A stretch of DNA of 624 nucleotides. Source: Escherichia coli. GTDB lineage: Bacteria > Pseudomonadota > Gammaproteobacteria > Enterobacterales > Enterobacteriaceae. Numbering within the stretch: position 1 is the first letter of the stretch; each line of letters begins with the position of its first letter. Location: assembly GCF_003334385.1 (NCBI RefSeq), contig NZ_QOWN01000160.1, one strand, 5' to 3'. Shown in pieces: positions 1-624 of the stretch. The notes beneath the pieces are model-generated. The model did not search any database and was not told the DNA's origin. It saw nothing but the letters and a program-made list of their open reading frames with translations. Made by a program: the position numbers and the translations under genes.

Positions 1-80
1 ACTACCATCGGCGCTACGGCGTTTCACTTCTGAGTTCGGCATGGGGTCAGGTGGGACCACCGCGCTACTGCCGCCAGGCA
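1..80 (-). rRNA. rrf: 5S ribosomal RNA, 5' portion (nt 1-80 of ~120); truncated by the window's left edge
   Basis: The reverse complement of 1-80 is UGCCUGGCGGCAGUAGCGCGGUGGUCCCACCUGACCCCAUGCCGAACUCAGAAGUGAAACGCCGUAGCGCCGAUGGUAGU, which matches the enterobacterial 5S rRNA 5' two-thirds essentially base for base. The mature 5' end (UGCCUGGCGG) is at window position 80. Confidence 0.95.
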
Positions 81-173
81 AATTCTGTTTTATCAGACCG
101 CTTCTGCGTTCTGATTTAATCTGTATCAGGCTGAAAATCTTCTCTCAATCCGCCAAAACACCTTCGGCGTTGT
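81..173 (-). other. 23S-5S intergenic transcribed spacer (part of the 9S pre-5S precursor region); no tRNA present
   Basis: This is the interval between the 23S 3' end (174) and the 5S 5' end (80). In RNA sense it reads ACAACGCCGAAGGUGUUUUGGCGGAUUGAGAGAAGAUUUUCAGCCUGAUACAGAUUAAAUCAGAACGCAGAAGCGGUCUGAUAAAACAGAAUU, nearly identical to the E. coli rrn distal spacer as I recall it. It is too short for a tRNA and has no cloverleaf-compatible sequence. The boundaries rest on the inferred mature ends of the flanking rRNAs. Confidence 0.85.

Positions 174-624
<451 letters not shown>

Follow-up and report, generated by a model that had tools for sequence, protein, structure and literature searches.

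The stretch of DNA analysed here, referred to as the window, has a length of 624 nt and is 100% identical to Escherichia coli K-12 as well as to thousands of further E. coli genomes. Its counterpart in strain MG1655 is the ribosomal operon rrnE, which is flanked by purH and yjaA and in which 16S, tRNA-Glu and 23S, in this order, precede the spacer contained in the window. The Rfam matches for 23S and 5S rRNA are both on the minus strand, so that this strand corresponds to the RNA sense of the following features:

174-624, minus strand: 3' terminal 451 nt of 23S rRNA (rrlE); Rfam LSU_rRNA_bacteria, 484.5 bits, model positions 2480-2925 (the last 446 model positions)
81-173, minus strand: 23S-5S internal transcribed spacer, 93 nt, between the 23S end given by Rfam and RefSeq and the 5S U1
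123-161, minus strand: stem-loop I of the 9S leader, predicted in the MFE folds of a 261-nt 9S-like RNA and of the leader alone
92-115, minus strand: the hairpin under study, assigned to stem-loop II of the 9S leader from folds, covariation and rrnB identity
81-91, minus strand: single-stranded linker AAAACAGAAUU with RNase E site a, from folds and the product sizes in PMC3488216
1-80, minus strand: 5' portion (80 nt) of 5S rRNA (rrfE), which runs past the window edge; Rfam 5S_rRNA, 56.6 bits, and RefSeq rrf annotation

The RefSeq annotation of 23S rRNA stops at the equivalent of window 174, and the Rfam 5S_rRNA match comprises the first 80 model positions (window 78-1), the 3' end being missing. 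The start of 5S rRNA differs between annotations: the PGAP record gives 116 nt from window 78, and the K-12 reference gives a 120-nt rrfB from the U equivalent to window 80; consequently, spacer lengths taken from annotation can vary by 2 nt. As the classical 120-nt 5S rRNA starts at this U, the spacer extends from window 173 to 81 and has 93 nt. The portion from about G165 onward constitutes the 5' leader of 9S RNA, and the forward primer that has been used for preparing the 9S in vitro substrate (GAAGCTGTTTTGGCGGATGAG) begins at GAAG, the equivalent of window 165 (PMC2948425). Within this leader, stem-loop I is predicted to consist of a core helix (147-143/136-132, loop GAAGAU), also found in the centroid of the 261-nt RNA, and of outer pairs at 154-152/131-129 and 161-157/127-123.

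The hairpin itself is a real feature of the spacer. RNAfold gives for the minus-strand sequence of window 115..92, AUCAGAACGCAGAAGCGGUCUGAU, the structure ((((((.(((....))).)))))), that is, an outer stem of 6 bp (115-110/97-92), a single A109.G98 mismatch, an inner stem of 3 bp (108-106/101-99) and an AGAA loop (105-102), which is exactly the architecture that had been proposed in an initial sequence-only reading. Its energy is -10.1 kcal/mol (z = -4.68), a stability reached by 0 of 200 dinucleotide shuffles, and a repeat search of window 60-200 returned it as the sole inverted repeat. The hairpin is kept in both the MFE and the centroid structures of the 93-nt spacer, of a genome-derived 9S-like transcript (261 nt) and of window 60-175 (116 nt), the minus-strand segment on which the sequence-only reading could be checked. 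In the predicted fold of the 261-nt RNA, a leader with two stem-loops is followed by a 5S domain closed by helix I and by a terminator hairpin; the hairpin under study is the second of the two leader stem-loops according to thermodynamic prediction and covariation, and its end is separated by 11 nt from 5S U1. The linker 91..81, which adjoins 5S U1 at window 80 and had been read as single-stranded, indeed contains no pairs when the 93-nt spacer or the 9S-like RNA is folded, although in the MFE of window 60-175, where 5S rRNA is truncated at nt 21, some of its nucleotides are paired with the upstream spacer. A stem-loop of 9S RNA has reportedly been examined by chemical probing (Christiansen, 1988). 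Other signals were considered and rejected at this position: an intrinsic terminator, because the stem is followed by AAAACAGAAUU and the window contains no terminator-like site; a promoter, because no promoter-like site occurs in the window; and the Rfam family RAGATH-30, whose match overlaps the hairpin and the 5S start with 20.1 bits against a gathering threshold of 59.5 (E = 0.24), and is regarded as a chance match.

The leaders of rrnE and rrnB differ by a G/C change near window 161 and by a 1-nt U indel near 148, leaving the hairpin untouched, and alignment of the window with MG1655 rrnB shows no difference between window 147 and the 5S start, hairpin and linker included; in turn, the rrnB leader matches the 9S substrate primer of PMC2948425. 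The assignment to the 23S-5S spacer and to the 9S precursor, already made from the letters of the stretch, thus agrees with the rrnE location, the rrnB identity and the Rfam and RefSeq flanks. Cleavage of 9S RNA has been described to yield products of 81 nt, 126 nt (p5S) and 38 nt (PMC3488216). When 81 nt are counted from the GAAG start of the rrnB leader, the cut deduced from these sizes is ACAGA↓AUUUG (the arrow marks the cut), with the scissile bond between A84 and A83, 8 nt downstream of the hairpin and 3 nt upstream of the mature 5S U1. Site a deduced in this way falls within the 91-81 linker, in line with the proposal that RNase E cuts in an A/U-rich single strand beside the hairpin and leaves a few nucleotides. 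The in vivo consensus of RNase E is RN↓WUU with a critical U at +2, and the TIER-seq study behind it also captured the 9S site in vivo (PMC5222698); GA↓AUU at window 85-81 fits this consensus, including U at +2. The exact position of the cut is not given in PMC3997798, PMC6582327, PMC4357692 or PMC5286369, and a full-text literature search with the site sequence ACAGAAUUUG and its variants returned unrelated papers only.

That cleavage depends on the stem-loop is taken, as are the cleavage products, from published work. Stem-loop II has been presented as the minimal structural requirement for site a in the RNase E cleavage of 9S RNA to p5S (PMC8522691), in a paper whose depiction of the stem-loops and of site c is a schematic. 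A preprint (bioRxiv 10.1101/341578, citing Cormack and Mackie 1992) relates that two stem-loops precede the single-stranded site, that disrupting them perturbs cleavage and that sequences 3' of the 9S cut are dispensable. In addition, an RNase E mutant in the duplex-binding surface ("8x") processed 8.9% of 5'-triphosphate 9S RNA vs 98.8% for the wild type, and a 5' monophosphate partly rescued this mutant, 5'-monophosphate 9S RNA being still processed (PMC6202311); duplex recognition is therefore one of two routes. Beyond adjoining site a, the hairpin is a positive recognition element according to the literature. The hairpin of the window would be stem-loop II because the fold contains exactly two leader stem-loops and this one is the second, beside the site; its numbering, which follows secondary citations (partly through the preprint mentioned above) and the predicted fold, is probable. 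In the literature searched, no mapping was found of a contact between RNase E and stem-loop II specifically.

Comparative data reveal that the pairing has been maintained during evolution. One genome per species was scanned for 23S 3' ends and 5S starts lying 70-100 nt apart, which provided at least 120 loci, nearly all from Enterobacterales (Escherichia, Citrobacter, Kluyvera, Pantoea, Mixta, Mangrovibacter, Leclercia, Kosakonia, Franconibacter, Siccibacter, Serratia, Cedecea and others). Among the matches listed, 81 of 91 distinct spacers have a hairpin at the same position, represented by 62 hairpin sequences in about 20 genera, and all 81 fold with energies from -8.4 to -22.3 kcal/mol (mean z -4.25, 98% with z < -2). 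In 77 of these 81 spacers among the matches listed, the end of the stem is 8-12 nt away from 5S rRNA and hence 5-9 nt away from the predicted cut; the stem-to-cut distance has a mode of 7 in this set and is 8 in K-12. In the remaining 4 of the 81 (d = 0 or 6), extra outer MFE pairs obscure the distance and the hairpin is no different. A MAFFT alignment of 69 distinct spacers from the matches listed (alignment A1) was analysed with the E. coli structure imposed. In these 69 spacers among the matches listed, pairing is kept in 84.4% of the cells vs 62.5% after shuffling (0 of 500 shuffles as high), double changes occur in 9 of 9 pairs (151 cells vs 44 expected), and the covariation score is 0.611 vs 0.234 for shuffled alignments; sliding the partner by 1-3 columns gives no more than 0.115. 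The K-12-type hairpin lies one column off the structural register in A1, its mismatch being at 19/36 instead of 20/35, which makes the covariation pair counts conservative. RNAalifold independently gives the same helix. In the same 69 spacers among the matches listed, the stem columns are highly variable and ACAGAAU.UGCCUGGCGGC is almost invariant, A at +1 and U at +2 being present in 69 of 69 and position -2 being always a purine (G in 67, A in 2). Retention of pairing while the stem sequence changes indicates that pairing, and not sequence, is under selection, and this matches a duplex read via its backbone, as has been proposed for RNase E (PMC6202311).

Several side observations concern the hairpin alleles. 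The K-12 allele is present in 4,377 of 5,426 complete E. coli genomes, with a median of 7 copies, and absent from 1,049; other E. coli strains have AUCGACAGGUCAUAACGGGACGUGUUGAU or AUUAACCGGCGACAAGCGGGUUAAU instead (L122:92-120 and L123:89-113, compared with window 92-115). The hairpin allele of E. coli E69 (L045) had a megablast match in 0 of the 5,426 RefSeq complete E. coli genomes and does not represent the species. A comparison across genera (loci L015, L018, L026, L027, L055 and L102) shows an identical K-12 allele in Pseudocitrobacter and Citrobacter youngae, variants with one base changed in the loop in Kluyvera sichuanensis (L102) and Citrobacter sp. FP75, and two coexisting hairpin alleles in one Pseudocitrobacter genome, which suggests either exchange of spacer segments or an old shared polymorphism. 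A literature search on 23S-5S spacer diversity returned nothing relevant. With regard to the stem, most versions are interrupted, three pairs away from the loop, by a 1x1 purine.G mismatch, which is G.G in 45 of 69 spacers among the matches listed (columns 20/35); in 7 K-12-type sequences among the matches listed an A.G mismatch is found one step lower (window 109/98, columns 19/36). The sequence of the apical G-C pairs and of a 3' GCGG is conserved in an otherwise variable stem. Another observation is a direct repeat, CUGAUA, at window 129-124 and 96-91 of the minus strand. Because of this repeat, CUGAUACAGAUUA (the 3' side of stem-loop I and its tail) and CUGAUAAAACAGAAUU (the 3' side of stem-loop II and site a) resemble related modules; this resemblance may correspond to a duplicated module, the first copy of which might be the published minor site c. 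Three unusual spacers were also recovered: Pantoea anthophila (L090) has an unrelated A/U-rich hairpin and ACCAAGAUUU replaces ACAGAAUUU, a 131-nt contig labelled Enterobacter ludwigii (L074) has a Pantoea-like hairpin and may be a contamination, and a Candidatus Fredericiella danica MAG (L066) matched the pattern with an unrelated spacer.

The location of the hairpin, its fold, its identity to the studied substrate, the maintained pairing and the invariant cleavage motif are observed in the present data, and they support the interpretation made in the sequence-only reading. The hairpin is very probably stem-loop II of the 9S leader, which helps RNase E to bind and to position the adjacent RN↓WUU site and so leads to p5S with 3 extra 5' nt. 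According to this model, RNase III would cut the 23S processing stem and release the 5' end of 9S RNA, and the 9S leader would fold into two stem-loops. Stem-loop II, presumably through contacts with the duplex-binding surface of RNase E, would help the enzyme to bind and to position the adjoining single-stranded site, the 11-nt A/U-rich segment after the hairpin being held single-stranded and in register with the active site. RNase E would then cut at ACAGA↓AUUUG, 8 nt past the stem and with U82 acting as the "+2 uridine", and the resulting p5S would carry 3 surplus 5' nt to be trimmed later.

The main caveats to this explanation are the 5'-monophosphate bypass mentioned above and the existence of natural spacers without the hairpin. 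Among the matches listed, stem-loop II is cleanly absent from 11 of 11 spacers of Enterobacter cloacae (L006, L007), Enterobacter hormaechei (L051-L054), Enterobacter vonholyi (L118-L120) and Klebsiella michiganensis (L103, L104), and therefore it is not universally required. These spacers have 67-71 nt and read …CAGCCUGAUACAGAUUAACAGAAUUU…, so that the loss is approximately equivalent to a deletion of window 116-89; the junction is …ACAGAUUAACAGAAUUUGCC…, with the RNase E motif retained, and ACAGAAUUU is kept, the Enterobacter junction being …ACAGAUUA/ACAGAAUUU…. Folding of the 11 hairpin-less spacers among the matches listed returned no other stable hairpin within 48 nt of 5S rRNA. Their folds are weak, and the predicted stem-loop I composite ends about 9-11 nt from the predicted cut; a composite stem comparable to stem-loop I of the window is predicted in relatives, including those without stem-loop II. 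Stem-loop I may thus substitute for stem-loop II in these organisms, as the predicted folds suggest. The existence of such natural spacers contrasts with the published statement (PMC8522691) that cleavage at site a requires at least stem-loop II.

A tentative alternative, possible but less likely than not in our judgement, is that the leader is made of two interchangeable modules, each with a stem-loop and ACAGA(A)UU, and that any duplex situated about 5-10 nt before the cut is sufficient for RNase E. Stem-loop II may then be a swappable cassette, whose alleles vary within E. coli and are common to several genera; loss of the cassette in Enterobacter and Klebsiella may put stem-loop I about 9-11 nt from the site and allow it to take over. 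The same reading may turn the kept purine.G mismatch into an undescribed functional feature, involved for example in recognition or in limiting stability.

Another explanation, which is considered unlikely, is that the hairpin works as a folding insulator: by pairing with itself it would prevent pairs between the leader and either the site or the 5' strand of 5S helix I, so that site a would stay single-stranded and 5S rRNA could fold, and the duplex itself would not be read by RNase E. The full-length fold, which shows hairpin, single-stranded linker and 5S helix I as cleanly separate elements, is compatible with this idea, as is the behaviour of the RNA with a truncated 5S, where the MFE pulls other leader segments into long-range pairs and the hairpin stays local. 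Likewise, conservation of pairing alone, and not of stem sequence, fits a purely structural role. However, the duplex-surface mutant of RNase E is strongly impaired on 5'-triphosphate 9S RNA (PMC6202311), and the minimal requirement for site a is, according to PMC8522691, stem-loop II, which points to positive recognition; moreover, the hairpin-less spacers of Enterobacter and Klebsiella have no replacement insulator. Insulation and recognition are in any case not mutually exclusive roles.

It is very improbable that the hairpin is a neutral element, either a chance palindrome or a functionless leftover of a duplication. Some genera do without it and suffer no obvious harm, its alleles are freely swapped within E. 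coli and between genera, and the repeat CUGAUA..ACAGA(A)UU on its flank hints at a duplication as its source. Against this, the published mutational work on 9S RNA (PMC8522691; bioRxiv 10.1101/341578) indicates a function, and in all 62 hairpin sequences among the matches listed the stem is stable and its distance to 5S rRNA is unchanged. Above all, the neutral reading is contradicted by covariation, the compensatory changes affecting 9 of 9 pairs with scores far above those of the shuffled and slid controls. Finally, it is very improbable that the hairpin serves RNase III cleavage, intrinsic termination or pausing, or protection from exonucleases, or that it belongs to a described small-RNA family, given that its stem has only 9 pairs and a mismatch and is not followed by a U-tract, that the window contains no terminator-like or promoter-like site, and that rne mutants having RNase III accumulate intact 9S RNA; this holds in spite of a weak Rfam match to RAGATH-30 (window 65-121, minus strand) and of the short stem-loop upstream of 5S rRNA that is an RNase III substrate in Helicobacter pylori, a bacterium without RNase E (PMC6582327).

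The assignment to stem-loop II of the 9S leader as an aid to RNase E cleavage is therefore the explanation retained here, and it describes a hairpin that is real, evolutionarily maintained and already known. As part of the textbook 9S substrate, it is no novelty in an E. coli rrn operon. The added value of the comparative data is modest: the strong covariation provides direct evolutionary support for a structure that has been defined mostly in vitro, and the hairpin-less spacers, together with the recurrent G.G mismatch, could serve as natural test cases for the way in which RNase E reads duplexes adjacent to its sites. The side observations are modest leads and no discoveries.

RNase E was discovered through the maturation of 9S RNA to 5S rRNA, and 9S RNA is still the standard assay substrate of the enzyme. 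We know of no structure of stem-loop II bound to RNase E. With respect to the 9S RNA of rrnB, the element of the window has the same species, the same sequence, beginning at window 147, for hairpin, site and 5S rRNA, and the same position, fold and expected cut; the differences are the operon, which is rrnE, and the two changes in the upstream part of the leader. Release of 5S rRNA directed by a flanking structure is also known from Bacillus subtilis, where RNase M5 makes a double-strand cut in pre-5S RNA, that is, within the duplex, unlike the cut in 9S RNA. Similarly, the pre-5S stem-loop of H. pylori is a structured element that flanks 5S rRNA and directs the releasing endonuclease, although in that case RNase III cuts inside the duplex, whereas in 9S RNA the duplex stays intact and the cut occurs in the adjacent single strand (PMC6582327). 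A further likeness is that to the "direct entry" substrates of RNase E (RprA, ompD/MicC and MicL), in which a duplex likewise lies a few nucleotides before an A/U-rich single strand with an RN↓WUU site (PMC6202311; bioRxiv 10.1101/341578). Recognition in these substrates is by structure and not by sequence, in agreement with the freely covarying stem described here; the difference is that RprA, ompD/MicC and MicL are sRNAs or mRNAs whose cleavage regulates expression, whereas the cleavage of 9S RNA belongs to constitutive rRNA maturation.
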